A stretch of 64,000 bases of DNA from a virus: the IMG/VR virus record IMGVR_UViG_3300042922_000295, positions 1 through 64,000 of that record. One strand, 5' to 3'. Below the pieces are notes generated by a model, which did not search any database, was not told where the DNA came from, and saw only the letters and a list, made by a program, of their open reading frames with translations. Made by a program: the position numbers and the translations under genes. Positions within the stretch are counted from its first letter, which is position 1, and every line of letters starts with the position of its first letter. Of the stretch, positions 1 through 42,564 are shown in pieces.

Positions 1-1
1 G

Positions 2-1498
2 TACAAGAACGACGCCACCTTCCACAAGCTGCGCGAGCAGATGGCGAAGGACTTCGGCTTCACCATCCAGAAGATGCCGGGTGGTGTGACTCACGTCATC
101 GCCCCCGAGCCGGAGCCGGAGGAGGAACCGACGACGACAGCCCCCGGGCCTGTCGTCGTCGGTTCGGAGCCTACGGTTCCCGAATTGGCGCCCGTCATCG
201 AGATGAACGACGACGGGGACCTGCCGCAGTATGTGTTCCCCGCTCTCGACTGGCGCTCCATCGTCCCCGAGAACAGCTTCATCCGCATGTACATGCGGCA
301 GTGCTGCATCGACGATGTCGCCGAAGAGTACCACTTCTGGAACGCAATGGTGGCAGTCGGATTCGCCCTCGGCCGCGAGGCCAGGCTGTTCGACTCTAGG
401 CCGGTGTACGGGAACCTGTTCGTCTGCACGCTCGGCACGTCCGGGTCCGGCAAGTCTAAGGCAGCGGGTTACCTTAACGACTGCGTCGACCAGGCCCTGC
501 CTCACGACTGGACCGACCCCTCGTCTCGGGGCGTTCGCCGCATCGCCACTCCCGGCTCGGCCGAGGTTCTGATCCACAGCTTCATGAAGCCGATCGCGAA
601 CACCTCAAACCCCAAGGTCATCGACTACTACGCACCAGTCAAGGGCCTGATCGACTTCAACGAGTTCTCGCAGCTCATGTCGCGTGCACAGCGCCAGGGG
701 AACGCACTCAAGCCCACCCTGATGCAGTTCTACGACATGGACCGTCTGATCACGTCAAACTCGATCACGACCGGCTCCAAGGAAGCTCACGACCCCTTCG
801 CATCCATCATCACGACGACTCAGCCCGCCGCATTCCGCAATCTCGTCGGAAAGGGTGACGACGATTCGGGATTCTTGAACCGGTGGCTATTCGTTGCCGG
901 GCCGGACAAAAAGAAGATCGCGGTCGGCGGTCAGCGCATCGACGTCTCGCCGTCGGCTCCGTACCTCAAGGCGATTTTCGCCTGGGCTGGACAGTTCCGC
1001 GATAACGAGTTCGTAGAGTGGGGTCCGGAGGCACTGGAGCTGTTCGAGAAGTTCTTCCACGAGACCCTGTATCCGCGCAAGGTGCAGGGAACCTCGGCAC
1101 TGTTCAACCGCATCGACCTTCTCATGAAGAAGGTCATTCTGCTGCTCGCGGGGAACAAGATGGAGCGCGTGGTGTCCGGCAAGACGGTCGAGGATGCCAT
1201 CAGCATCTACGACTACATCATCAAGTGCTACGAGATGCCGCAGGCCGAGCTCGGCAAGACGCTGAACTCCGAAGTCCAGGAAGCTGTGCTGTACCAGTGC
1301 CGCAAGCAGTTCGAGAAGAACCCCCAGGCTGGTGTGACGGTGTCCATCATCGCTCGCAACCTCGCCAGGAGGAACTATCCGAGGGAGATGATCGTGAAGA
1401 CGCTTGACACCCTTGTCAAGCTGGACCTTATCGAACCCGTGGTGTCCGAACCGGGCAAGCGCGGCCGACCGACAACGAGGTACCGCTATGTCGGCTGA
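2..1498 (+). CDS. Primase/helicase C-terminal part, DUF3987/YfjI-like P-loop NTPase with C-terminal winged helix (5'-truncated by window)
   Basis: Frame open from base 2; Walker A GTSGSGKS, DSGFLNRWLF motif, C-terminal GKRGRPTTRY wing. Confidence 0.75.
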   Translation, partial: YKNDATFHKLREQMAKDFGFTIQKMPGGVTHVIAPEPEPEEEPTTTAPGPVVVGSEPTVPELAPVIEMNDDGDLPQYVFPALDWRSIVPENSFIRMYMRQCCIDDVAEEYHFWNAMVAVGFALGREARLFDSRPVYGNLFVCTLGTSGSGKSKAAGYLNDCVDQALPHDWTDPSSRGVRRIATPGSAEVLIHSFMKPIANTSNPKVIDYYAPVKGLIDFNEFSQLMSRAQRQGNALKPTLMQFYDMDRLITSNSITTGSKEAHDPFASIITTTQPAAFRNLVGKGDDDSGFLNRWLFVAGPDKKKIAVGGQRIDVSPSAPYLKAIFAWAGQFRDNEFVEWGPEALELFEKFFHETLYPRKVQGTSALFNRIDLLMKKVILLLAGNKMERVVSGKTVEDAISIYDYIIKCYEMPQAELGKTLNSEVQEAVLYQCRKQFEKNPQAGVTVSIIARNLARRNYPREMIVKTLDTLVKLDLIEPVVSEPGKRGRPTTRYRYVG

Positions 1499-1856
1499 CC
1501 ACGACGTGAACCTTCTCCGGAACGCCTCGATCGAGTGGGTCGAGAACGGCCGTCTCGTTCTTCAGCTCTCCAATGGCGACAGGCTCATCCTCGCGCAGGA
1601 CGTTTACGACGAGCTGTGCGACGGCGAATACTCCAACCGGCAGCACTACAGCCGCGCCACCTACGCCAAGGGGTGCCGTGGCCCGATGTGCCGTCTCGCT
1701 GAGACACACCGGGGCCGCAAGCGCAACGCCGACCGCGCCCACGAGGGCGGGCGGGAGTACCGCGAGGGCTTCCGCACTAACGACAGGTCGGTCGAACTCG
1801 CGCCGATCATCACGTGGCACCTCGCGACCCGGGGCCGCAAGATACGCGAGTCCTAG
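1488..1856 (+). CDS. Hypothetical protein with H-x5-Y-x2-GCR-x3-C putative zinc-binding motif
   Basis: ATG overlaps upstream stop; HYSRATYAKGCRGPMC. Confidence 0.7.
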   Translation: MSADHDVNLLRNASIEWVENGRLVLQLSNGDRLILAQDVYDELCDGEYSNRQHYSRATYAKGCRGPMCRLAETHRGRKRNADRAHEGGREYREGFRTNDRSVELAPIITWHLATRGRKIRES

Positions 1857-1862
1857 AAGCAG

Positions 1863-1899
1863 AGAAACCCCCCGGCTGGAATCCAGCCGGGGGGTTTCT
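1863..1899. terminator. Bidirectional intrinsic terminator
   Basis: Perfect 18-bp inverted repeat AGAAACCCCCCGGCTGGA-A-TCCAGCCGGGGGGTTTCT between convergent genes. Confidence 0.9.
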
Positions 1900-1906
1900 T
1901 GTGCCC

Positions 1907-2650
1907 TTATTGCAAGGCGCCTCGTTGGATCGGCGGTAGGTCGCCGGACAGGTTTCCAGTCGCATAGTCGTACGCGACGTCAGCGATGTGCCCGATGAGC
2001 GACCCGTCGAACTCGTCGCCGCAGATACACCCGGGCTCCGTCTGCGAGATGGGGCCGTGGTGCTCCTCGACTAGCGCCACGACCTGCTCGGGAGGGCGCC
2101 GTGCCCACATGTGACCCTCGAAGATGAGGGACCCATCCTTGTCGTGGTTGAACTCCACCTCAACGCGGGGCACCTCGCCCACGGCATGCGTGAAGGTGAC
2201 GAAATGCACACCGTCGAGCGAGGTGCCGTTGACCACGACCTCTGTAGTGGAGGGCGAGATGTTCTGCACCTTCACCATGCCAGACTTCGGAATGCGGGAC
2301 TTGACGTTGGTGCGCTCGGCCTGCGTGGTGTACTTCTTGGCGCTGCACTTGGGGCAGTAGTAGCGCGTGACAACATTGCCCTCGATCTCGTCTGGAAGCC
2401 AGGCGTGTTCGCACGACCCAGAGGTGGGAGCTCCGCCCACAACCTCCAGAGGCCCGTTTCCCAGGGAGTCCTTGAAGACCTGTGGCGGCTCAGTGCCCAC
2501 CTCCCACCACAGGTCGGAGTTGCAGATGAAGCAGTTGACGAGATACCGACCTTTGGTGTGACCCAGATCAGTTCGTACGTGACCCCACTGGTGCCTGTCG
2601 TCGCGACAGCAGGCGACAGTGCGGTCGAAGTCCCAGCTCAGCTGACCCAC
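1907..2650 (-). CDS. Hypothetical protein (CxxC pairs)
   Basis: GTG start with AGGAGA upstream, overlaps upstream gene; phage-like codon usage. Confidence 0.65.
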   Translation of the reverse strand: MGQLSWDFDRTVACCRDDRHQWGHVRTDLGHTKGRYLVNCFICNSDLWWEVGTEPPQVFKDSLGNGPLEVVGGAPTSGSCEHAWLPDEIEGNVVTRYYCPKCSAKKYTTQAERTNVKSRIPKSGMVKVQNISPSTTEVVVNGTSLDGVHFVTFTHAVGEVPRVEVEFNHDKDGSLIFEGHMWARRPPEQVVALVEEHHGPISQTEPGCICGDEFDGSLIGHIADVAYDYATGNLSGDLPPIQRGALQ

Positions 2651-3330
2651 CTCCAGTTCTCCTTGCCAGCCTTGAAGCCGCCGCACACCTGGCATTGCGT
2701 GCCCGTGATGCTCCCCACCATGGCGCGTGCCGTTCGCGTGTGCGAGCAGGCGTCGACCTCTTCCTTGGTGTACTGACGCTTCTCGTTGCACCCGTGGCAG
2801 ATCTTCCAGCCGCGCCGCATGTGGTGGTGCTCCCACTCGTGCTCGTGCGGCTGCTCCTCCAACACGGCCTCAAGCAGGACTGCCGCGCCGTCGAGCCACA
2901 TGATGCGAGTGTGCCCGCCGTGCCCGTGGACCTTCAGCGCGTCGTCGGCGGATGCGTACGTGATGGTGGAGGCCGTGTCCCCACGCCAGCGGAGCGTCAC
3001 GGTGCCGTCAGTAAACTGCACCCCGTCCGCGATGACGCCGGTGCCCGAGACGCCTGTAACGTCGTGAGAGCGGATGAGGACGAACTTGCGGAACCCCTTG
3101 GTCGGCGCACCCTCGCGCTCATCGTGCGGCTCCAGGCCGGGGCCGAACACCGCGACCTCCATCTGCACGAGGGTGATCGCGTCCATGAGTGCGCAGAGCG
3201 CCGGGTGGGTCTCCTGGAGAGACTTCCCGGCGCGCTGCTTGGGGTGGACCGACTCGTTGGCTTCCTGCATGGCCTTGGTGAACGCCGCTGAGAGCTGGTT
3301 CGCAGCAGCCTGGATGACACGGAGGTCCAT
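2638..3330 (-). CDS. Hypothetical protein
   Basis: 230-aa ORF coupled to neighbours; central FVLIRSHDVTGVSGTGVIADGVQFTDG segment looks like a compact domain. Confidence 0.8.
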   Translation of the reverse strand: MDLRVIQAAANQLSAAFTKAMQEANESVHPKQRAGKSLQETHPALCALMDAITLVQMEVAVFGPGLEPHDEREGAPTKGFRKFVLIRSHDVTGVSGTGVIADGVQFTDGTVTLRWRGDTASTITYASADDALKVHGHGGHTRIMWLDGAAVLLEAVLEEQPHEHEWEHHHMRRGWKICHGCNEKRQYTKEEVDACSHTRTARAMVGSITGTQCQVCGGFKAGKENWRWVS

Positions 3331-3581
3331 CAGTCGACCTCCGGCTTGGTGGGCTCTTCGGTGGCATCGAGCAAGGCCTCGCCGACCATCCGGAGAACCT
3401 TGTTCCCCAGGTCTCGGGCGAGCACCGGGTTCTCGGCCTGTATCGACTCGGCGTAGGCGATGATCGCGTTGACGGCGTGAGGGTCGTGCTTGGGGTCCAA
3501 GACGAACACCCAGCAGTTGTCGTGCTTGCCCTCCGGGTCGTTGATCTTCTTGACCTCGTAGCGTGCTTCCAGGCCCTTCAC
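3330..3581 (-). CDS. Hypothetical protein
   Basis: Coupled 83-aa ORF; FVLDPKHDPHA motif. Confidence 0.8.
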   Translation of the reverse strand: MKGLEARYEVKKINDPEGKHDNCWVFVLDPKHDPHAVNAIIAYAESIQAENPVLARDLGNKVLRMVGEALLDATEEPTKPEVD

Positions 3582-3808
3582 GATACCTCCTTGTAGGGGA
3601 CGAGCAGTGCGGCCAGGGCGCAGATTGCGCTGGCGATGAGGGGGAGCAGGGCGACGGGGGTCAGGTTGCCGCTGATGATGACGAACCAGACGAACCCCGC
3701 CAGGGCGCCGATGCTGGCGCTGAAAAGGAGCTTCGCACCGTAGCGCATCTCGTACCGACGCGGCGGGGCGGGCTTCTTGGCGATCACTGTTGCGTGTCTA
3801 CCTTTCAT
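3578..3808 (-). CDS. Small two-TM membrane protein
   Basis: Two hydrophobic segments; 4-bp overlap. Confidence 0.7.
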   Translation of the reverse strand: MKGRHATVIAKKPAPPRRYEMRYGAKLLFSASIGALAGFVWFVIISGNLTPVALLPLIASAICALAALLVPYKEVS

Positions 3809-3810
3809 CG

Positions 3811-4005
3811 TTACTCGTCGTGGAACGTGGGCGTTGCGCGAGCAACCCGGCAGAACCAGTAGGTCTCGTATCGCTTGTACACGTCACTGTACGTGACGTG
3901 CATCCAGGAGGGTGTGCCGTCTCCGCGCTTGAGGAAGCGCAGCGCCTGGCCGCAGAGCTTGCAGGTGTCCTTCTTGACCGGGGTCTCGGGGGTCTCTTCG
4001 CTCAT
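3811..4005 (-). CDS. Small Cys-containing hypothetical protein
   Basis: MSEETPETP start overlapping upstream stop; CKLC...WMH...WFC resembles neighbour 4002-4208. Confidence 0.65.
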   Translation of the reverse strand: MSEETPETPVKKDTCKLCGQALRFLKRGDGTPSWMHVTYSDVYKRYETYWFCRVARATPTFHDE

Positions 4006-4208
4006 GGGATCGGGGTCACCTTCTTCGTCGGCATGGGCTCCGGAAGGCGCCTCTTGCGCTCGCCCGGCTCGGCTGTGGTGCGGTGGCAGAACCAGTGGTC
4101 GTTGTGAGAACCGGCGCCGGGGGTGTAGTGAACCCACTTCTCCCCGAGGGCGAAGCGCACCTTCTTGATCGCCTTACCGCAGTGCTTGCAGGACTTGGGC
4201 TGGGCCAT
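4002..4208 (-). CDS. Small Cys-containing hypothetical protein
   Basis: AGGAG RBS; CKHC...WVH...WFC. Confidence 0.7.
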   Translation of the reverse strand: MAQPKSCKHCGKAIKKVRFALGEKWVHYTPGAGSHNDHWFCHRTTAEPGERKRRLPEPMPTKKVTPIP

Positions 4209-4216
4209 GAGGTCTC

Positions 4217-4744
4217 CTAGAAGGGGAGGTCGTCGTCGGTGTCGGCCGAACGCTCGGCTGCTGTCGTGTACTGCGCGGGCTTCGAGTCGTACAGGAGCGT
4301 GGTGATGCCTGTTGCGTCCTTCGTGGCCGTTAGCGGCTGAAAGTCGACGCCGGGACCCGCGAGGTCCAGCGTGGGCGTCGCGTCAGGCGGGGGATTCTCG
4401 GGCAGACTGCCTTCGTGGAAGTATGACGTGTCGCCTAGATCTTGTGCGCCGGGCCGGATGATCCACATGCCCTGCGAAGGGTCCCACAGGTGGTAGGAGT
4501 GCTTCGGGCAGGCGGGGTTGTAGGCGAGGTAGTACTCGATCATCCCGCCCCCGTGGTCCTCCGACTCCTGCGAGCAGGCGCACTCAACCTTGTCCCGCGT
4601 GGGGAGGATCATCTGCAGAGCAGCCGCGACCAGATGATTGCGGTCCTCGGTGGCGAGGCATGTACCGTACTTGTCGAGCATGTAGCGGTCGAGTTCTTCG
4701 GCAAGGTCCTTCATCAGGACATCGTCGTACTTGATCTCACTCAT
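4217..4744 (-). CDS. Hypothetical protein ending in SSB-like acidic tail DDDLPF
   Basis: ATGA overlap, GGAGG RBS, C-terminus DTDDDLPF. Confidence 0.75.
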   Translation of the reverse strand: MSEIKYDDVLMKDLAEELDRYMLDKYGTCLATEDRNHLVAAALQMILPTRDKVECACSQESEDHGGGMIEYYLAYNPACPKHSYHLWDPSQGMWIIRPGAQDLGDTSYFHEGSLPENPPPDATPTLDLAGPGVDFQPLTATKDATGITTLLYDSKPAQYTTAAERSADTDDDLPF

Positions 4745-5148
4745 CGCAGCACGCACCTCCTGTGGGGGCTCACGTGGTGGTTGTGAGTCGGGCAGCACGC
4801 CTTGTCAGTGTGGTCGTGCCACACCACCTTCTCGGAGTCGAGCAGGGCGAGGGCCATGTCGAAGAACGTCGCGACGAACGATGTCGGGTACTTCGAGAGG
4901 TTGTGGTCGGGCTCTGCCTTGCCGTACGACTCGAGCAGCACACCCGCCATCCGCCACGCCTGCGTGCGCTCTTCGGTGGTATTCGAGAGCGTCTCGGTCT
5001 GCATGCGCTGGCCGACAATCTCTGCCTCGGTGCGCCCGTCGAACTCGATGCAGTAGCATCCGCGCTTGGTGCACGACTCGTTGAAGTGCGAGTGCTGGAA
5101 GCGCGTGTGGGTGCAGCGGCGGCACTTGACGTCCTGCTTGTGCGTCAC
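4741..5148 (-). CDS. Hypothetical Cys/His-rich protein
   Basis: Coupled ORF; terminal CCPTHNHHVSPHRRCVLR. Confidence 0.75.
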   Translation of the reverse strand: MTHKQDVKCRRCTHTRFQHSHFNESCTKRGCYCIEFDGRTEAEIVGQRMQTETLSNTTEERTQAWRMAGVLLESYGKAEPDHNLSKYPTSFVATFFDMALALLDSEKVVWHDHTDKACCPTHNHHVSPHRRCVLR

Positions 5149-5807
5149 TTGAACGAGTCCTTTTCGACCTGGTGCAGCGTCTCGTTGAACTCGGCGACGG
5201 CCTCCTCGGAGGCCGGAGCGTACACCGCCAGCACCTGGTCGGCCGTCTCGATGATGGACTCCTGCACCCGAGCAGCAAGCTCGACGTACCCGTCGTCACC
5301 CTCTGTGGCGAGGACGTCGAACGTCACCTGCTCGCCAGCAGTCATCCCCTCGACCGCGATGGTACCCGCCACCGTCGTCGCGCTCCGCTGCGCCAGCGCG
5401 GCGAACTCGGCCTGCGCAGCGGTGCGGCAGGCGCGCCGATCCGACCATCCGGCGTTGACCCAGCTCGCCATTCCGGGCGTCCAGAAGTCGCGCTCGTAAA
5501 TCTCCTGCGCCCGCTCGTTCAGAACGTCCGGGTCGATGTCCAGCTTTCCTGCCACCGTGAACTCCTCGCTATCGGATGCGACTTTCCTCTTGACACCCCA
5601 AGGCTTATCGGCGTCGAGCCGCTGCAGTAGGGCTGCCACTACATCGCCCGCCGTTACCGGCACCTTGCGGTGCGACCCTTCGACAGACGGGTCGTCGACC
5701 CAGGCGACTACTGTGGTGCACTCGCTCGCGGCGTCGTAGAGGTGCTTCATGAGCTCAGAGCCTATCACTCCGCGCCCATGGAACCTAGCCCCCGGCGCTA
5801 TCGGCAT
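5145..5807 (-). CDS. Hypothetical protein, first gene of leftward block (start uncertain)
   Basis: 220-aa ORF with 4-bp overlap to next gene. Confidence 0.65.
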   Translation of the reverse strand: MPIAPGARFHGRGVIGSELMKHLYDAASECTTVVAWVDDPSVEGSHRKVPVTAGDVVAALLQRLDADKPWGVKRKVASDSEEFTVAGKLDIDPDVLNERAQEIYERDFWTPGMASWVNAGWSDRRACRTAAQAEFAALAQRSATTVAGTIAVEGMTAGEQVTFDVLATEGDDGYVELAARVQESIIETADQVLAVYAPASEEAVAEFNETLHQVEKDSFK

Positions 5808-5835
5808 CCCTCAGGCACTCACGACAGAGGTTTAC

Positions 5836-6325
5836 TGCAACGGCCGCTGCACTAAATGCTGTGAACCCGAACAAACGTCCCTCTCCAGGTTTTCCGCAAC
5901 GGCGTTGCACATAATGAGAGTGGGCGTCTAGACCCGAATCATGTACGTAAACGGACATCGTCTACGAAGTCGTGACATCTAGGGACGACCTGTACGGGGG
6001 TTCATGTTGCAGCAACAGATAGTGCAACACCCTCTGTTGCAGATGAAAAACGGCCCCTGACCTGCGGAAACACCATTTAGTGCAACAACTGCAACGCCCC
6101 CCCCTTACAAGCCCCCCCACACCCCACATCCCCAGCGACTGACGCTACCCGGAGCGCGGCCATGGGACGACCGTTGCAAGAATTCCCTGTTGCACTAAAT
6201 CTGGGGGGTCCCCAGCCCGGGGCTCAGGACCGTGTCCCTCCTACTACTACTACTACTACTACTATATATACAGTAAATAGGTTATAGGGGTATAACCCCT
6301 AGTCAGAGGGTGTTTTTTTAGTGCA
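5836..6325. repeat. Candidate replication origin: TGCAAC/GTTGCA and TGCACTAAAT repeats plus (CTA)8-TATATA tract
   Basis: TGCACTAAA(T) at 5848, 6075(rc), 6191, 6317(rc); TGCAAC/GTTGCA at 5836, 5904, 6006, 6023, 6036, 6081, 6090, 6173, 6189; (CTA)8 at 6241-6264. Confidence 0.55.
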
Positions 6326-6524
6326 TCACTTCCTGCTACGAACGTGTAACTGTGCGACAGTCGTTTTCAACTAATATTCTCGTCCTTGGGTGCGAAAGAG
6401 AGCAATGTCAGCGGGGTTGTGCGTAAGAATCATCGTTCTTAAGGGTAATCAGAAGACTTTTCCAAAGTTTTATGCGCGTCGAACGGGGCAAGAGAGCGCC
6501 GGGCAAAGGCGGGGTCTGGATTTT

Positions 6525-7286
6525 ATTGCCGGGGGCAACAGTGTGCATTCCGTCGGGATAATTGCCGACGGCAACTATGTCGCCTTTGTTGCGCTAGGCA
6601 ATCATCAGAATGCGTTAGCGCAATGGGTCCGATAGTGCACACTATCGGCGCACCTCATTGTCATTGTTTGCATTCTCATTGTTTCGCGTGCATTAGGCGC
6701 CGACTATGGCGACGATTGCCTCACGCAACAGTCGTATCTATGCATTCATTGAACGTGCGCGTATTAGGTCCGGTAATGAGGCGAATCGAAATACGCGCAT
6801 CGATTGGCGCCTCACCCAATTCACAATGCACACCACGTATAGCACTGTTTCATCAGGCAACTACACACCCATTCCCACAGACGTTTCATCAGGCAACTAT
6901 GTACATTCACCATTCTGTTTAGGAAAGGCTAATGGTGCACACATAACAGACCATTGCCCATGACAACTGTCTATGCACTATGCACATGCACCATTCATGG
7001 TTACCCTACGCAACTACACTGTTGCATCAGGCAACTACCCTACGGGTGCATACCTATGCACACCATGCATACCTATGTGTGCCTCACGCAACAGTATGCA
7101 ACGCGTTGACTAGGCAATTCGCGTGTAACGGCCGAACAGACCTCACCCTAGGTAATGACACCCGGGACGCATGTACGGGCGCCTACGGGGCGCCTAGGCA
7201 CGTCTACGCGTGTCCTATGGGTGCGACTACGCCTAGCGCTACGCATGCATATGCATCCCACTAGATCGACTGTTGCCTAGGGCAAC
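6525..7286. repeat. Left cluster of 15-bp palindrome RTTGCC-N3-GGCAAC (11 degenerate copies)
   Basis: Copies start at 6525, 6561, 6588, 6715, 6847, 6883, 6953, 7000, 7021, 7078, 7272. Confidence 0.85.
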
Positions 7287-7342
7287 GGCTAGCGCTAGGT
7301 CACGACCGTTACCAAACCGTTATCGGAAAGAACGGTTTCGAC

Positions 7343-7371
7343 TAGACACCACCTAGCGCTAGGCGTATGGT
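7343..7371 (+). promoter_or_regulatory. SigA-type promoter for a leaderless transcript, TAGCGCTA palindrome in the spacer
   Basis: TAGACA-17 bp-TATGGT, then 6 nt to ATG 7378 with no SD. Confidence 0.7.
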
Positions 7372-7377
7372 TGGGGC

Positions 7378-7848
7378 ATGACAACGAACCGGAACACCCG
7401 CCCCGCGCCCGACGCGGCGCCCGCGCCCCGCGTGCGACTCGCTACGGTCGCGACGGGCGCGCACGTCTACTACGCCACCGACGCAATCGACCACGTCGTG
7501 ACCGGGACCGTCGGCGACTCGTTCGGCATGGCCGAATTGGGCAACCGTGGTATCCGCATCCACGGTTGCGCATGCGGGACGACTCACAACGTGACCCGCT
7601 ACGCAATGGTCGTCGTCATCGACCCGTCGCCCGCGACGGTTGTCCCGGACACCCGTACGCGACGAGTCGCCTACACCATCGCGGACGTTGTTTCGTGGAT
7701 CAACAATGACGACGCGGACAATGACTATGCGGGACCGGGCGCGGCGCCCGCACCTAGCGCTACGTGCGAACACATGACGACCGTTTGCGACTCATGCGTT
7801 GACGAATGGTGCACCGACTACGCGATCACGTACATGCCGCACGCATAG
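7378..7848 (+). CDS. Hypothetical protein with C-terminal TCEH-x4-C-x2-C module
   Basis: Promoter directly upstream; module shared with 9281-9553. Confidence 0.75.
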   Translation: MTTNRNTRPAPDAAPAPRVRLATVATGAHVYYATDAIDHVVTGTVGDSFGMAELGNRGIRIHGCACGTTHNVTRYAMVVVIDPSPATVVPDTRTRRVAYTIADVVSWINNDDADNDYAGPGAAPAPSATCEHMTTVCDSCVDEWCTDYAITYMPHA

Positions 7849-7961
7849 TTCACCCGCTAGCACCTAGCGCTAGGGTGGCACATAGGCTAGACTGGTCTAT
7901 GTACCGCCCGGGAACTAGGTCCCTAGTCACCCCACCGACCCCACATAGGGAGATGTTTCAA

Positions 7962-8624
7962 ATGGCACGCACGAACACCCGCACCGCGCCCGCTACGTCC
8001 GCCAAGTCGTCCGCCACGGTCGACCCGTGGGACGCCGCCGTGGACGCCTACCACGCCGCGTCGGGCGCCGAAAAGTCCCGCGTGCGTCGGGACGCCGACG
8101 CGTCGATGCGCGCCGCGCTCATCGCCGGTGACGCGTCGGGCGCCATGGCGTGGTTGGCCGCTACCGAAAAGATGGTGGCCAGCCGCCCGACGGCCGACGC
8201 GCCCGACTACGTCGACATCGTCGCCCGTCGCATCGTGACCCTTCGGGGCGCGGCCGAATCGATCCTCAACGGGTCGACCCGTCCGGCCGGTATCCCGGAC
8301 GACGTCGACCTGTCCGCCGTCGCGGCACGCGTCGCCACGATGTCCTACGACGACGTGTCGGCCGACGACATGTCCGCCGTCGCGTCCGCAAAGGTGGCGC
8401 GGTCGGCCGTCCGACGCGACATCGCGGACGTCGTGCGCCGTGCGTTCGACGTCACCGGAAAGAACCGGTTGACGGTCGCGGCCATCGCGCGGCACGGTGC
8501 CACCGACGACTACACGCCTTCGGGCGGTGCGGTCGCGGCGCGCATGTTCGGTGGTCGCGGTGTCGACGGATTCACCGCCCACGAGGCGACGGCCGACGCG
8601 CCCCGCACGATCACCCGCGACTAG
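7962..8624 (+). CDS. Putative DNA-binding protein (C-terminal winged-helix-like domain)
   Basis: GGGAG RBS; C-terminus aligns by eye with that of 14160-15122; followed by terminator. Confidence 0.75.
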   Translation: MARTNTRTAPATSAKSSATVDPWDAAVDAYHAASGAEKSRVRRDADASMRAALIAGDASGAMAWLAATEKMVASRPTADAPDYVDIVARRIVTLRGAAESILNGSTRPAGIPDDVDLSAVAARVATMSYDDVSADDMSAVASAKVARSAVRRDIADVVRRAFDVTGKNRLTVAAIARHGATDDYTPSGGAVAARMFGGRGVDGFTAHEATADAPRTITRD

Positions 8625-8637
8625 TCACTAGTCGCCC

Positions 8638-8675
8638 AAAAGGCGCCCGTCCCCTAATCGGGACGGGCGCCTTTT
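8638..8675. terminator. Intrinsic terminator (bidirectional)
   Basis: AAAAGGCGCCCGTCCC-loop-GGGACGGGCGCCTTTT. Confidence 0.9.
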
Positions 8676-8689
8676 CGTGTCCCTAGATA

Positions 8690-8976
8690 GTTGCCCCGGG
8701 CGACAGTCGCCTAGCGCAACTACGAGCTACGCGGACGGTTGCCAGGGGCAACTATCCCGGTTGCGTCGGGCGACTGTTGCCTAGGGCAACGAACGCGTGT
8801 GTGCCGTTCTGACGGCCGTACACGCGTCGACCCTACCCACCTACCCACCTAGCGCTACGCGCCCCGTACGCGGGCGCCTAGGCACGTCTACGGCGAGATT
8901 GTGCCTAGGCGCCCCGCGCCCGTAGCGGTCGGGCGACTATGCGCCGACTACCGGCACGACTGTTGCCTAGGTCAAC
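8690..8976. repeat. Right cluster of 15-bp palindrome GTTGCC-N3-GGCAAC (6 degenerate copies)
   Basis: Copies start at 8690, 8706, 8738, 8760, 8776, 8962. Confidence 0.85.
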
Positions 8977-9214
8977 CAACGCGTGTGCGCCCCGTAGGCG
9001 CCCGACTAGGCGCCCCGGGTCACCTAGTACCCACCTAGCGCTAGTCGCGTCCCTACGGGGCGCCTAGACACGTCTCACGCGTAGTCGCGCCCCGTGCGCT
9101 AGTCGCCCGCTAGTCGACCGCCCGCGCCCCGCCCGTAGTCACCCGCGCCCCGTGCCACGGGCGCCCCGCGCCGACGATCCTTCGGGCGCATCGGCACCCG
9201 TGCGCGTAGTCACC

Positions 9215-9262
9215 AAAAAGGGCGCCCCACACACGAAGTGACATCTCGTGTGTGGGGCGCCC
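9215..9262 (-). terminator. Intrinsic terminator for 9281-9553
   Basis: 17-bp stem GGGCGCCCCACACACGA/TCGTGTGTGGGGCGCCC with T-run on minus strand. Confidence 0.85.
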
Positions 9263-9280
9263 GTGCGCGCTAGTTATGCG

Positions 9281-9553
9281 CTAGTCGCGTGCCTCGTCGT
9301 GCGCGTCGTCGGACTCGTCCACCATGTCCGCGTAGTGAGCTCGCGTCGCCGTGATCGTCACCTCGTAGTCGGCCGACCATGAGTCCACGCATTCCACGCA
9401 CACAGTCACCGTGTGCTCGCACGTCGTCGGCGCGATGAGAGTTGTGTTGAAAGGTGCGGCCGGTTCGTTCGTCCAGGTGACCCCACCATCGCGTGACACC
9501 CGGTTGTCGCGGATGATGAGTCGCACGTTGTCGCCCGTGTTGAAGGTCATCAT
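9281..9553 (-). CDS. Hypothetical protein with TCEH-x4-C-x2-C module
   Basis: MMTFNTGDNVRL start; upstream TGG-TACGAT extended -10 candidate; own terminator. Confidence 0.65.
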   Translation of the reverse strand: MMTFNTGDNVRLIIRDNRVSRDGGVTWTNEPAAPFNTTLIAPTTCEHTVTVCVECVDSWSADYEVTITATRAHYADMVDESDDAHDEARD

Positions 9554-9750
9554 GAGTCCAATCAATGTGTCGGGTGCGCTAGATTCCCTAGCGCTATGAA
9601 TATCGTACCACAAATGGTCACACTTTGTATTCTGGGTAATGCTGGGAATCCCAGAGAAATGCAGCATTTCAAGTGAAATGAGATATGCCTTTGTATGTGG
9701 CATCCGACTATGAATTGCCTGTGGAAATGGTCACCTGACGAACAAAGGTT

Positions 9751-9759
9751 TGATAGAAT
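9751..9759 (+). promoter_or_regulatory. Extended -10 promoter candidate for rightward early arm
   Basis: TGA-TAGAAT in an AT-richer intergenic region. Confidence 0.5.
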
Positions 9760-9824
9760 GGTCTCGTGCCCGCAACGGGCGCGGATTCGGCAGTCGGACA
9801 CTTTGACCCCATACGGGAGGCATC

Positions 9825-10445
9825 ATGAAGATCAGGGCTTTCAACCTGGTTCCGGGCGCAGTCATCTATGGCCCGAACGAGGAGCCGCGAGTCGTCCACT
9901 CGGTTCACCGCAACGTGGACAACGAGTCGGTCACCCTGTGGTTCGTCGGCATCCTGCGGGCGGCACAGTTCGACTTCAACGAGGACCTGTCCCTCATGGG
10001 CCTGACGCCGCACTACGACGACTGGACGCACGTCGAGACCGACTTCGGCACCGACGCGGGCGACGCCTACGCGAAGGCGCAGATGGCTATGCACAACCCT
10101 GCAGACGACGACGAGGGCGTCCCGTTCGCGAAGTACACGTCAGACGAGCTGTGGGGCCAGGTCCAGTCGGACTACGAGGCGCTCGGTCGGGACGGCGTGG
10201 AGATGCTGCTGGACGAGATCCTGTCCCGCAACCCGCAGTACTTCGACAGGACGGTCCCGGCCGGGTCGCTCGAAGTCGGGACGAAGTTCCGGTTCGCCGA
10301 CAAGCGCGAGTGGTACTACACCGGTAGCAACCAGGACTACACAGTCAAGGAGCACTTCGGCGGTCGTACCACCTTCGACACCCAGACCGGCCAGGGCTCA
10401 GTCCCCAGCGAGTTCCTCGTCCGCATCGTCTCCACGGAGGTCTGA
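9825..10445 (+). CDS. Hypothetical protein
   Basis: GGGAGG RBS, strong GC3 bias. Confidence 0.85.
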   Translation: MKIRAFNLVPGAVIYGPNEEPRVVHSVHRNVDNESVTLWFVGILRAAQFDFNEDLSLMGLTPHYDDWTHVETDFGTDAGDAYAKAQMAMHNPADDDEGVPFAKYTSDELWGQVQSDYEALGRDGVEMLLDEILSRNPQYFDRTVPAGSLEVGTKFRFADKREWYYTGSNQDYTVKEHFGGRTTFDTQTGQGSVPSEFLVRIVSTEV

Positions 10446-14081: not shown

Positions 14082-14159
14082 GAGTTTCATGCCACCCAGG
14101 GACGGTCAATCCGACAACCGTTCCCCACGACCGGACCGACACACAGGGAGTTGAGCATC

Positions 14160-15122
14160 ATGGCACGACGCAAGGCAACCGAGACCCCGGAGACGACCGA
14201 GGTCCAGAGCACGGAGGAGAACACCGTGAGCACCGACACCACCACCGAGGCGCCCGTCGAGGCCGTCGCGGACGCGCCGGAGACGGACGCGCCCGAGGCG
14301 CCCGAGTACGACCTCACCGACTTCCAGGCCGCGCTGAAGCAGGCGCTGGAGGTCCGCGACGAGACGACCGGCGTCGTCCCCGAGGCGAACGTCAGCGAGG
14401 TCGTCGTCGCGTACCGCCAGATCAAGGGCGCGGCGGGCAAGCGCGCCGCCAAGGAGATCGTCGACGAGGCGATGAAGGAGGCGATGCGCGAGGCGAACCT
14501 GTCCGTCGCCCGTGCCAACCTCTCCATCAGCGAGAAGCTCGTCGCCGGTCCGTCCGGCGGCGGCTCGTCCAAGTCGTCCACGCCCCGCGAGCCGGTCGAC
14601 CCGACCGAGGCGTTCGTCGAGCTCGCGGCCGGTCTGCGGCTCGCCACGACGCTCGTCGGCAACACCGCGCCCGAGGGTGTCGCCGAGGACTGGCAGGAGA
14701 AGGCGAAGGAGAAGGTCGACGACGCCTTCGGCGACGCCGAGACGTTCCTCGCCTGGCTCCAGAGCGAGGACGAGGGCAAGGGCGACGAGCCCGAGGTCCC
14801 CGCCTTCGTGAAGGCGGCGGTCAAGCTCGCCCTCGGCAAGTCGGCCCGCGTGGGCACGGCTCGGGCGCGTGCCACGGGCGGCGGCTACTCGGGCGAGCGC
14901 CGCGACGTCGCGAAGCACATCCAGTCGGCCTTCGCCGACGTGGCCGAGGGCACGTTCCTCGCGGTCGCGGAGATCAGGAACCACAAGTCGGAGGAGTACG
15001 GCAACGACGCCCCGAGCGCCGGTGCCATCTCCGCCCGCCTGTTCCCCCGCAACGGCAAGGTCACGATCGAGGGCGTCGAGCCCGCGACGCAGAACGGCAA
15101 GAAGGGCGCCGTCAAGGCCTGA
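14160..15122 (+). CDS. Putative DNA-binding protein (acidic N-terminus, C-terminal winged-helix-like domain)
   Basis: Very strong codon bias; own promoter candidate and terminator; RRDVAKHIQSAF...PSAGAISARLF. Confidence 0.8.
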   Translation: MARRKATETPETTEVQSTEENTVSTDTTTEAPVEAVADAPETDAPEAPEYDLTDFQAALKQALEVRDETTGVVPEANVSEVVVAYRQIKGAAGKRAAKEIVDEAMKEAMREANLSVARANLSISEKLVAGPSGGGSSKSSTPREPVDPTEAFVELAAGLRLATTLVGNTAPEGVAEDWQEKAKEKVDDAFGDAETFLAWLQSEDEGKGDEPEVPAFVKAAVKLALGKSARVGTARARATGGGYSGERRDVAKHIQSAFADVAEGTFLAVAEIRNHKSEEYGNDAPSAGAISARLFPRNGKVTIEGVEPATQNGKKGAVKA

Positions 15123-27512: not shown

Positions 27513-28113
27513 GCAGGGTAGGCCGCGCAACGCCAAGGCTGCTGAAGGTCTGATCAGCAAGCACCGTGTGGCGTGGCTGGAGACCTTCATCGGCCACGTC
27601 TACATCATGATGTATCCCGAGGGTCACGCCGACGAGACCGACGCACCCTCAGTCAAATCAGAACCCGGCCCGACACTCCGGCTGATGTTCGTCAAGAACG
27701 GGCGTCCGATCTACTGGACGCTCACGGCGCTGACATCAGATGAGCTCGACAAGCTCAAGACCCTTCTCGACATGGCCTTCGACATCGCTCGCCCGATAGT
27801 CGAGGAAAGAGACAAGGCGGCACAACATGCGTACGACACCCAGGGTGACGACTCTATCGCCCGACTCTATCGCGCAGTTTCGCGCCTCATTGTGCGCGAG
27901 GGGGCGATCACCGAAAACAGCACAAGCGTACGGCAGCGACCTGAAGACGATGCTGCTGGACCTGGAGGACCCGGAGATTCCGATGAAGGACTTCGAGTCA
28001 TCGGCCCAGAACTGGCTGACGTTCAACCGGAAGCTGGTGGGGTACAAGACGACGGGACGCAGGCTGACGAGTCTCCGGGCGTTCGCCCGGTGGGCTGGAT
28101 GGCCGACCTCTGA
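27505..28113 (+). CDS. Hypothetical protein whose 3' end overlaps the recombinase gene
   Basis: TTG start with GGAGG RBS; fills the 27.5-27.85 kb gap. Confidence 0.65.
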   Translation: MARQGRPRNAKAAEGLISKHRVAWLETFIGHVYIMMYPEGHADETDAPSVKSEPGPTLRLMFVKNGRPIYWTLTALTSDELDKLKTLLDMAFDIARPIVEERDKAAQHAYDTQGDDSIARLYRAVSRLIVREGAITENSTSVRQRPEDDAAGPGGPGDSDEGLRVIGPELADVQPEAGGVQDDGTQADESPGVRPVGWMADL

Positions 28114-28663
28114 CCTCGACGAGTACAAGGCGCCTTCTGCCCCGCCGACCCAGCCTCACCCGATCCCCGAGGGCGTGGACGGACTTCGTCGCATGGTTGC
28201 GGCGGCGCGAAAGCCGAGCCATCGTGCACTAGTGGCGTTGTGCGGTTTCATCGGCTGTCGAGTCGGCGAGGCTCTCTCTGTCCGACCTAGCGACATCGAC
28301 CTCGGGTCGATGGTCCTGAAGGTCGACGGCAAGGGCGACAAGATTCGCTTCGTCCCCATCTCCACCGAGGCGTGGGGGTACATGGCGGATGCAGTAACAG
28401 CAGCTTTCCTGAACGGTGACGAGCGAATCATCAACGTTCAGGAGCGGGTGGCACGTCAGAACATCACCACCCTCGCGAAGCGCGCCGGACTCTCCCGGCA
28501 CGTTTCCTCGCATGACCTGCGGTCGACGTTCTCGACCGCTGTGTACGACAAGACGGGCGACATCCGTCTTGTGCAGGAACTCCTCGGGCACTCGTCCGTG
28601 GAGACGACCCAGATCTACATTGGCGTCAAGCACCAGAAGATGCGCGACGCTGTGGAACTGTGA
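27845..28663 (+). CDS. Tyrosine recombinase, XerC/D-like (no arm-binding domain)
   Basis: GCRVGE, GKGDK, HDLR, LLGH, TTQIY: full catalytic set. Confidence 0.93.
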   Translation: MTTLSPDSIAQFRASLCARGRSPKTAQAYGSDLKTMLLDLEDPEIPMKDFESSAQNWLTFNRKLVGYKTTGRRLTSLRAFARWAGWPTSDLDEYKAPSAPPTQPHPIPEGVDGLRRMVAAARKPSHRALVALCGFIGCRVGEALSVRPSDIDLGSMVLKVDGKGDKIRFVPISTEAWGYMADAVTAAFLNGDERIINVQERVARQNITTLAKRAGLSRHVSSHDLRSTFSTAVYDKTGDIRLVQELLGHSSVETTQIYIGVKHQKMRDAVEL

Positions 28664-41595: not shown

Positions 41596-41900
41596 TGCTG
41601 ACGGTGTCGGTCAAGGTCAATGACCTCGAAGTCGCCATCGTGGAAATCAAGAACGTCCAGACGAACGAGGACGGGACTGCTAACTACGTAGCGACCTTCG
41701 AGGTTGACCGGATGGGTGCGCGAGGCCGACACCGTCGCAGGCTGTTCGGATTCCCGCGCACGCAGTACAACGCACTTGGGCTACTCAAGTTGGCCCTGGA
41801 TTCACTCGACCCGAGAGACTTGGAGCTCGAAACCGATGGGACTGGTACATCAGATCTGGCACGGCGACAGCGTGGAGCTGGCCCAGCGCTTCCACGCTAA
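41595..41900 (+). CDS. Hypothetical protein
   Basis: TGATG coupling. Confidence 0.7.
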   Translation: MLTVSVKVNDLEVAIVEIKNVQTNEDGTANYVATFEVDRMGARGRHRRRLFGFPRTQYNALGLLKLALDSLDPRDLELETDGTGTSDLARRQRGAGPALPR

Positions 41901-42564
41901 GCGTCGCATCCAGAGCGTCATCACCGACCCGCCCTTCGGCGTGGACAACCTGTCGAACATGGCGACGACGCAGGCTGGCAAGGAGTATGCCCGCAAGATC
42001 GCCAACGACGAGTCCCCCGAGGTGGCGATCAAGGTCTTCCGTGACGTCATGGAGTCCGTCATCCCCGGGATGAAGGAGGAGTCGGACATCTACATCTTCA
42101 CGGCGCACCAGGTGCTGGAGGAGTGGCTGGTGTTCACCCGGGACCTCCTGGAGCCGCACGGCTTCCGCCGCAAGGCGATCCTCGTGTGGGAGAAGGATGG
42201 CCCCGGCATGGGCGACCTCAACTCGTGGGGCATGGGCTGCGAGTTCGTCCTGTACTACAAGCGGGGCAACCGCGAGAAGTCGGACAAGCGCCGGAACAAC
42301 GTCCTGCACCTCCCGCAGCTCAGGCCGAACGAGCTCATCCACCCGCACGAGAAGCCGGAGCAGTTGCTGGAGTTGCTCCTGAAGCACTCGACGGACCCGG
42401 GCGACTTCGTCATCGACCCGTTCGGTGGTAGCGGCAGCCTCGTGCGCGCCGCTCGCCGGTGCGGCCGGTCGGCGGTCGCCATCGAGCTGGACGAGAAGAA
42501 CTACGAACTCGCCAGCAAGAAGCTCAACGAGGGCGACGGCGGAGGCTTCGACTTCGGAGTGTGA
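41836..42564 (+). CDS. Orphan amino-DNA methyltransferase (N6A/N4C, beta-class motif order)
   Basis: ITDPPF, HPHEKP, DPFGGSGS. Confidence 0.92.
   Translation: MGLVHQIWHGDSVELAQRFHAKRRIQSVITDPPFGVDNLSNMATTQAGKEYARKIANDESPEVAIKVFRDVMESVIPGMKEESDIYIFTAHQVLEEWLVFTRDLLEPHGFRRKAILVWEKDGPGMGDLNSWGMGCEFVLYYKRGNREKSDKRRNNVLHLPQLRPNELIHPHEKPEQLLELLLKHSTDPGDFVIDPFGGSGSLVRAARRCGRSAVAIELDEKNYELASKKLNEGDGGGFDFGV

Follow-up and report, generated by a model that had tools for sequence, protein, structure and literature searches.

A VAG-poor, CTAG-rich zone beside the probable genome end of an uncultivated phage related to Gordonia siphophages

Results

Layout of the locus and word composition of the island

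The window analysed here comprises the first 64 kb (64,000 nucleotides, nt) of the 84,497-nt IMG/VR record IMGVR_UViG_3300042922_000295, derived from an uncultivated soil virus. Its subject is a short island from which the trinucleotides CAG, GAG and AAG and their complements CTG, CTC and CTT (together VAG/CTB, counted on both strands) have almost disappeared. The island carries three genes, here designated g1, g2 and g3 (Table 1). The window starts within a helicase gene (record positions 80254-82164, + strand, ending at window position 1498), which is followed by leftward genes (1907-5807), 1.6 kb of AT-richer non-coding DNA (5808-7377), the island and a rightward early operon beginning at 9825. 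Among Gordonia, Rhodococcus and Tsukamurella phages, helicases such as those of Orchid, Jumbo and ReqiDocB7 share 30-34% identity with this one. The two ends of the record overlap (1-3831 and 80667-84497, 93.7% identity), and therefore they are not physical ends; the unit genome is ~80.7 kb (about 80,666 bp), represented by a circular-type assembly that runs on into a second strain.

Table 1. Features of the island, and distant features of the same genome that bear on it
Feature	Position	Strand	Remarks
Conserved motif GGCCCCTGACCTGCGGAAACACC, non-coding zone	6064-6086	+	near-identical in L083, L084
(CTA)n-TATATA block	6240-6300		similar blocks in Orchid, Trogglehumper, L076, L083, L084, Amore2
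Putative short direct terminal repeat (physical ends)	6320-6520		placed by analogy only
Array of ~10 copies of palindrome TTGCC-N3-GGCAA	6526-7091		more copies at 7273, 8691-8975
Core of VAG/CTB-free, CTAG-rich zone	7100-9290		37 VAG/CTB (both strands) vs ~230 expected; 36 CTAG
Promoter-like site TAGACA-17-TATGGT, sigma-70-like	7343-7371	+	overlaps palindrome CCTAGCGCTAGG
g1, 156 amino acids, no Gln, no Lys, TAG stop	7378-7848	+	C-terminal Cys motif TCEHxxTVCxxCVDxWxxDY
g2, 220 amino acids, purged phrog_6708 member	7962-8624	+	helical N-terminal domain, C-terminal winged helix (both predicted)
Perfect 16-nt inverted repeat between A4 and T4, read as two-way terminator after g2	8638-8675		inverted repeat and sequence
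Non-coding repeats, two 186-nt units	8676-9219		each unit with GACTGTTGCCTAGGGCAAC, CACCTAGCGCTAGG, GGCGCCTAGGCACGTCTAC
g3 terminator, hairpin and T-run	9220-9262	-	terminator scan
g3, 90 amino acids, paralogue of g1 C-terminus, no Gln	9281-9553	-	homologue in L076 at 1512-1841
Unpurged g2 paralogue	14151-15122	+	26% identity over 220 amino acids, E 2e-6; normal VAG counts
N6-adenine DNA methyltransferase (PF01555)	41704-42564	+	linked to the zone by co-occurrence only

In the core of the island VAG/CTB words occur 1-2 times per 100 nt, against a median of 10.7 for genes, a depletion unmatched by any other 1-kb bin of the 84 kb. The words TAG and CTA are not depleted there; they are enriched 5-8 fold. 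CTAG is dense in the core and rare elsewhere (0-4 in the other 1-kb bins of the record, mean ~0.6 per kb). All further depleted tetranucleotides contain AG or CT, and one rule describes the zone: AG is permitted only where T precedes it, and CT only where A follows. The non-coding DNA of the zone is as poor in VAG/CTB as its coding DNA, in a genome whose other intergenic segments mostly hold 6-13 per 100 nt (3.1-3.4 in two short G+C-rich ones).

The initial annotation, made from the sequence of the window by eye, had drawn the island at 6350-9800 and had named CAG/CTG as the purged motif. The sharp core proved to be narrower than this span, and both words are indeed depleted, as part of a broader set that takes in all VAG/CTB. 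Its individual counts were borne out: g1 contains neither CAG nor CTG (none lies between 7270 and 7892), g2 contains exactly one of each (8180 and 8310), glutamate (Glu) is mostly encoded by GAA (8 GAA to 5 GAG over the three genes, against 10% to 90% in the rest of the genome) and the contrast in CTAG density is as described. The reported absence of glutamine (Gln) holds for g1, for g3 and for g2 translated from the ATG at 7962; the 223-amino-acid form of g2 chosen by the gene caller, which starts at the upstream ATG 7953, gains one CAA-encoded Gln.

The depletion exceeds amino-acid composition

In synonymous-codon resampling, with the protein sequences fixed and codons drawn from the genome's own usage (5,000 resamples), g1 has 5 VAG/CTB against 18.9 +/- 3.0 and g2 has 12 against 39.8 +/- 4.2; in neither case did any of the 5,000 resamples reach the observed count. 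The purge of g3 is weak (14 against 16.5, not significant). Expressed per 100 nt, g1 and g2 contain 1.06 and 1.81 VAG/CTB, and no other gene of the genome has fewer than 8.6. Significance after control for amino-acid composition, on which the initial annotation had staked its proposal, therefore holds for g1 and g2. The proposal that the purge had changed the proteins themselves was likewise confirmed. Gln is absent from the 456 codons of the three genes (~17 expected), which also encode less leucine (Leu, 2.2% vs 7.3% in the genome), lysine (Lys, 1.1% vs 4.3%) and Glu (2.9% vs 6.3%), and the four residues together make up 3.2% of g1 and 6.8% of g2, against a median of 17.7% in the family of g2. 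Codon choice is affected across codon borders as well: a codon followed by one of the form T[CGT]x never ends in C in g2 (0 of 23) or in gene gX of the uncultivated relative L076 (0 of 47), compared with 45% genome-wide. The pressure thus strips Gln, Lys, most Leu and GAG-encoded Glu from the encoded proteins and dictates codon choice across codon borders.

The depletion is independent of coding and of strand. Since the motif and its complement are both missing from one strand, selection must act on duplex DNA and not on codons or on a single RNA. This bears on a cause at the level of RNA or translation, in which early messages would avoid a motif recognized by a host mRNA interferase or anticodon nuclease directed at Gln, Glu, Lys and Leu codons. 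VAG read in frame corresponds exactly to Gln, Glu and Lys, and CTB to Leu; the purge falls on the first early genes, and all seven purged genes end in TAG, the stop codon of 25% of genes genome-wide. However, occurrences out of frame and across codons are avoided as strictly as those in frame, non-coding DNA is purged too (including 443 nt in phage Amore2), and avoidance of the motif and its reverse complement is equal within one transcript, which is why we consider an RNA-level cause very unlikely. A separate candidate, reading of TAG as Gln (genetic code 15), was rejected, as the resulting frames gave only low-complexity read-through and no tRNA was found in the window. Scans of the region with Rfam models and for tRNAs returned nothing meaningful.

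It is well established that phages avoid specific restriction sites over their whole genomes, and the present one is no exception: outside the island GCCGGC, CCGCGG, GGGCCC and GGATCC are absent and CGCGCG, CTCGAG and CAGCTG nearly so, which points to restriction systems of the host. Site avoidance is therefore a strategy of this lineage. The pentamer AGCTA/TAGCT is also missing outside the island (0 on both strands, ~38 expected). The island, although very CG-rich, obeys the genome-wide hexamer bans, and so must have been shaped by the pressures that act on the genome as a whole. The purge of recognition sites postulated in the initial annotation is thus real as a purge of motifs, while the avoided unit is a family of trinucleotides and not particular sites of 5-6 bp.

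The same zone in related phages

Comparable zones were found in uncultivated loci and in cultured phages. L076 was recovered by an exact scan for the palindrome GTTGCCTAGGGCAAC, and L083 and L084 by a helicase-based scan; their helicases are only 29-31% identical to that of the present phage. The relatives share a common architecture, in which an AT-rich TATATA block, an array of TTGCC-N3-GGCAA (also found in L076 and L083) and a first gene are followed by a small membrane protein, a homologue of g2, non-coding repeats (including an identical 21-mer) and the early operon. A homologue of g3 is present in L076 only, and the place of g1 is taken by a gene for a 540- or 388-amino-acid protein rich in Thr, Asp, Tyr and His. 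L076 contains 1,053 nt without a single VAG/CTB on either strand, where ~120 would be expected. In both L076 and L083 it is the first gene that is purged, the g2 homologue being only mildly affected (6.3-6.6 VAG/CTB per 100 nt); therefore the effect follows position and not gene family. In these two loci the zone sets in once the palindrome array has ended and weakens across a few kb; the L084 contig ends where the zone begins. The first genes themselves (L076, 3796-5418, - strand; L083, 13389-14555, + strand) encode acidic proteins without Lys that belong to no known family, and contain the longest motif-free run; such a protein is a candidate for the first-made protein of these phages.

In the cultured phages Amore2, PokyPuppy, Woes and Kvothe the zone occupies the last 1.5-4.8 kb of the right end (0.25-4.8 kb from it). 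From this end the early genes are read towards the interior of the genome. Here VAG/CTB drops from 25-30 to 0-15 per 250 nt, with runs of zero over 443 nt in Amore2 (300-745 nt from the end, non-coding) and 411 nt in PokyPuppy; counts of TAG/CTA climb as high as 28 per 250 nt. At the left end, VAG/CTB is normal in coding DNA. No comparable zone was found in Orchid or Trogglehumper, and L078, which shares a 19-mer, is at most mildly depleted. The motif-free leader of Amore2 (73140-73540; 10140-10540 in L206) is packed with palindromes of the CTAGTACTAG type and with GTTCGTT repeats over promoter-like sites; L076, L083 and L084 contain palindromes of a related type, ATAGTACTAT.

Comparison of the seven zones showed depletion of VAG/CTB and 3-6 fold enrichment of CTA/TAG in every one. 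They share a position in the genome while covering different genes. The classes CAG/CTG, GAG/CTC and AAG/CTT are depleted 2- to 11-fold in most zones; in three of the seven they take the first three ranks of depletion, and in L083 only AAG/CTT is among the five most depleted. Selection against CAG, GAG and AAG, in either orientation and on double-stranded DNA, thus operates in the first 1.5-4.8 kb from the early-gene end.

A three-letter motif avoided symmetrically on both strands, independently of frame and with an effect that fades with distance from the end, could also reflect CRISPR (clustered regularly interspaced short palindromic repeats) immunity. A family of type I protospacer-adjacent motifs (PAMs; AAG/GAG-like, CTT for Cas1-Cas2) would then have been lost from the first few kb, the first-entering end being the hotspot of spacer acquisition, either through successive escape mutations that destroyed PAMs or through selection against them. 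AAG and GAG are PAMs of type I-E systems, the injected end is an acquisition hotspot, and ATG and AGG are functional I-E PAMs in Escherichia coli. Yet CAG is depleted as much as AAG, ATG and AGG have not been removed (ATG 32 vs 31), TAG is enriched, and there is no depletion of AAG in the rest of the genome. We therefore regard PAM erosion as unlikely.

The seven zones also bear on the possibility that the island is a foreign cassette (moron), or the product of a local mutation bias, with the composition of a donor. As claimed in the initial annotation, the island has its own promoter and terminators, namely one sigma-70-like site (7343-7371) and hairpin/T-run structures at 8638-8675 and 9262-9220. 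The terminator scan returned only the latter; the former was assigned on the basis of the inverted repeat and of the sequence itself. Moreover, g1 matches only itself in a word-indexed search. The transcription signals of a moron are thus present, but a foreign origin is not apparent: the island shares the hexamers avoided genome-wide, g2 has the ribosome-site context of an early gene, synteny of the module extends to L076 and L083, with helicases of only ~30% identity, seven phages have the zone at one and the same place over different genes, and open reading frames have been kept intact. The shared hexamer bans and the seven-phage zone largely refute this explanation, which we find barely credible.

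Several wider searches added little. A metagenome scan for tandem palindromes gave at least 120 mostly unrelated loci, with no further clear island among the matches listed, and a motif scan with CACCTAGCGCTAGG gave single matches only and no comparable island except that of L045, which is mildly VAG-poor and CTAG-rich. Neither near-identical nor protein-level relatives of the island came to light when g1, g2 and the gene at 9825 were searched against the phage collection and IMG/VR, because the purged composition hides homology. No account of such a feature turned up in a limited search of the literature.

Position relative to the physical genome end

Woes, Monty and Hotorobo are lytic siphophages with 192-bp direct terminal repeats and tails of ~540 nm (PMC4982279). 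The repeat of Amore2 measures 179 bp, and those of the relatives (179-330 bp) lie outside the zone, which in Amore2, PokyPuppy, Woes and Kvothe is found just inside the repeat at the early-gene end. An A/T run and an AT-rich block follow just inside the repeat in Amore2 and Trogglehumper. The relatives' counterpart of the (CTA)n-TATATA block adjoins the terminal repeat at the helicase-side end, the sequence TGACCTGCG is present near the left end of Amore2, and Logan contigs of the present phage break at the block. Taking the block as equivalent to the left-end block of the relatives and the island as equivalent to their right end, a repeat would therefore be placed at ~6.3-6.5 kb. By this comparison of sequences the island very probably lies beside a genome end, in a linear molecule whose direct terminal repeats are short, as in Gordonia siphophages such as Woes, Monty and GTE7, and would be 0.8-3 kb from the early-gene end.

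The initial annotation had taken the region for the genome end or a terminal repeat. Synteny with cultured relatives that have known short repeats supports the former, while the latter, as a long repeat, was contradicted by contig depth: the Logan contig 6075-9218 has a depth of 1654, with neighbours at 1477-2035 and no doubling. Depth in this assembly (run X2) falls stepwise, from 1907-2035 (1-6104) through 1654 (6075-9218) to ~1480-1500 (9250 onward), for which a strain mixture or the state of replication are possible causes.

The odd composition might also be imposed by some property of the DNA itself, such as dense arrays bound by proteins (CTAG-core operators), bendability, or a leader lying inside the very long tail. 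CTAG does sit in repeated palindromes at promoters, and by simple arithmetic the ~540-nm tails of Woes and Monty (PMC4982279) correspond to ~1.6 kb of B-DNA, which is near the length of the zone. Binding sites, however, would account for an excess of CTAG in non-coding DNA and not for a 1-kb coding stretch without VAG/CTB. As we know of no such structural rule of DNA sequence, we hold this explanation to be decidedly unlikely.

Cultured members of this phage group were reported to be lytic and integrase-free (PMC4982279). The present genome encodes a small tyrosine recombinase (Phage_integrase, 278 amino acids; 27827-28663), which may serve dimer resolution instead of integration.

Genes and DNA elements of the island

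The product of g2 belongs to the phrog_6708 family (E 5e-6, with homologues up to E 4e-65 for full-length members), and a profile built from g2 and two homologues retrieved 231 family representatives. A word-indexed search of 5.8 billion proteins returned only the query. An orphan by word search that is nevertheless a member of so large a family implies that purged genes drift beyond the reach of homology searches. Two g2 homologues from Logan assemblies, P0027 and P0076, contain only 2.8% and 4.4% of Gln, Glu, Lys and Leu combined; the purge therefore exists in more uncultivated phages. In the same genome, g2 differs from the unpurged phrog_6708 paralogue in being a second, purged copy beside the genome end, and the paralogue can be used as an internal control.

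An AlphaFold (AF2) model of g2 based on 57 sequences (predicted local distance difference test score, pLDDT, 91.7) has a C-terminus of the form H-E-H-H-E-E. Foldseek matches were weak (E > 0.1), many of them, over ~70-90 columns, being to winged-helix domains, and g2 is accordingly predicted to be a winged-helix DNA-binding protein. The repeated palindromes are its most likely targets, and it would act as the regulator of this genome end. An anti-defence function, assigned to the genes of the island in the initial annotation, does not suit g2: given the predicted winged helix, a family conserved in these phages and the unpurged state of the gene in relatives, a regulator is more likely.

TTGCC-N3-GGCAA has 48 matches in the window (22 +/- 5 expected), 17 of which lie at 6526-8975. 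A replication rule might be envisaged, in which the zone keeps CTA and forbids CTG, CTC and CTT in order to control primase starts near the end, the palindrome array being a possible g2-bound origin. Primases of the DnaG type start at d(CTN), the last base being read and not copied. For bacterial primases, start sites of d(CTA), d(TTA) or d(CTG) have been described, depending on the class (PMC2978363). The contrast in the zone is exactly that between CTA and CTB, next to the zone lie an AT-rich, iteron-like array and a gene for a predicted winged-helix protein, and helicase-primase genes are only a few kb away. This idea nevertheless gives no reason why further start sites for a primase should be lethal to a degree that demands complete avoidance, it is at odds with the equal purge of both strands, as only one template strand should matter, and it leaves the link with the methylase (see Discussion) unexplained. 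We find it quite unlikely.

The products of g1 and g3 are small proteins with a common Cys motif and without informative relatives: the word-indexed search of 5.8 billion proteins with g1 returned only the query, and the ESM Atlas gave only sub-threshold leads. From the position of the promoter-like site, the g1 message would be leaderless. The 21-mer GTGTGTGCCGTTCTGACGGCC at 8797-8817 is identical in L076 (1995-2013, 2147-2165) despite the 31% identity of the helicases, and represents a strongly conserved non-coding element beside the g2 terminator.

Discussion

The reading that we tentatively prefer, and consider a real possibility though still short of probable, is that the leading end of these genomes is kept free of a short motif read by a modification-based system, and so enters the host unnoticed. 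VAG would be the core of what such a self/non-self system reads. The reader may be the conserved N6-adenine methylase encoded by the phage itself, which resembles M1.HpyAVI and would have VAG as its target, or else a host system with this target that the phage methylase counters. A leader free of the motif would be neither cut for missing methylation nor attacked for carrying it, with the benefit falling in the interval before early proteins act, and the rest of the genome would rely on methylation. Whatever its nature, the agent must read duplex DNA and distinguish VAG from TAG. Its persistence in phages whose proteins are down to 30% identity speaks against an ordinary, fast-changing restriction specificity and in favour of a phage-borne enzyme or conserved host machinery.

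All seven phages in which the zone, or at least its first bases, can be seen encode the methylase (62-68% identity), and most of the cultured group has it at the same level of identity. Orchid, Trogglehumper and L079, which lack the zone, do not encode it; the helicase of L079 is the closest to that of the present phage (51% identity). The methylase and the g2 family each occur in ~97-98 cultured phage records, with a near-identical spread over host genera (Gordonia 88 for both, Tsukamurella 6 for both, Rhodococcus 4 for the g2 family and 3 for the methylase). The nearest solved relative of the enzyme is M1.HpyAVI (E 5e-17), a promiscuous methylase that modifies GAGG, GGAG and GAAG (PMC5173035). 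In each of these targets the methylated A stands in the context RAG.

Several considerations weigh against this reading. At such a distance, sequence resemblance to M1.HpyAVI does not allow the specificity of the phage methylase to be deduced, and, to our knowledge, none of the known defences or methylases reads exactly VAG. The co-occurrence of methylase and zone is weak evidence, because the phages with the methylase are nearly all of one group, so that its distribution follows phylogeny. If virion DNA were fully methylated, the purge would not obviously be needed. Furthermore, TAG/CTA is not merely tolerated but enriched, with L076 using rare GTA-G valine codons, and simple avoidance does not predict such an enrichment. 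The reading also presumes that the zone-bearing end enters first, and slowly, in these phages. Finally, the location beside a genome end was demonstrated for Amore2, PokyPuppy, Woes and Kvothe, while the ends of the present phage, known from a circular-type assembly and contigs only, are placed by synteny.

A more specific form of the leading-end hypothesis, which we think rather improbable as it stands, is a two-part strategy in which a promiscuous methylase marks VAG genome-wide and the first-entering 1.5-5 kb is kept VAG-free. It would extend to ~100 cultured Gordonia, Tsukamurella and Rhodococcus phages and their soil relatives. If true, this would be a stealth strategy that alters the set of amino acids available to the earliest proteins, and the first instance in which a position-graded avoidance of trinucleotides goes with the order of DNA entry. 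The zone would be a sequence signature of first-exposed DNA, which could be used to locate genome ends and the polarity of entry in uncultivated phages. The finding also directs attention to the reader of VAG, possibly the group's own methylase. Since Woes, Monty, Amore2 and PokyPuppy are in culture, as is the host Gordonia terrae 3612, these ideas are directly testable.

The zone can be compared with several known systems. Leading ends of special content are known from T5, whose pre-early genes lie within a 10-kb terminal repeat, and from T7, whose leading end carries gene 0.3 (Ocr); T5 and T7 also lack specific hexamers. The present zone resembles them in being an end-proximal early segment in a genome with direct terminal repeats, expected to be exposed first and containing few or no target sites. 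Unlike the T5 segment, it lies inside repeats of only 179-330 bp in this group, and the undoubled contig depth excludes a long repeat over the island of the present phage; we know of no two-step transfer in these Gordonia-type phages. In contrast to T7, no Ocr-like protein was identified.

Enzymes reading an AG core of 3-4 bp do exist, as illustrated by M1.HpyAVI, of which the phage methylase is a sequence relative, and by the M.CviQII/Nt.CviQII methylase/nickase pair of chlorella viruses, which acts at RAG. The phage methylase differs from that pair in that no nickase partner was identified for it, and we know of no description of a VAG specificity that spares TAG. With the avoidance of palindromic type II sites the zone shares the removal of short words on both strands regardless of coding. 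It differs in that the avoided word is a degenerate trinucleotide, excluded over a few kb at one end with an effect that fades inward, and in that whole amino acids have been removed from the encoded proteins. The exclusion of a family of three-letter words from one genome end only, in the form of a gradient, therefore differs from the known whole-genome avoidance of restriction sites.

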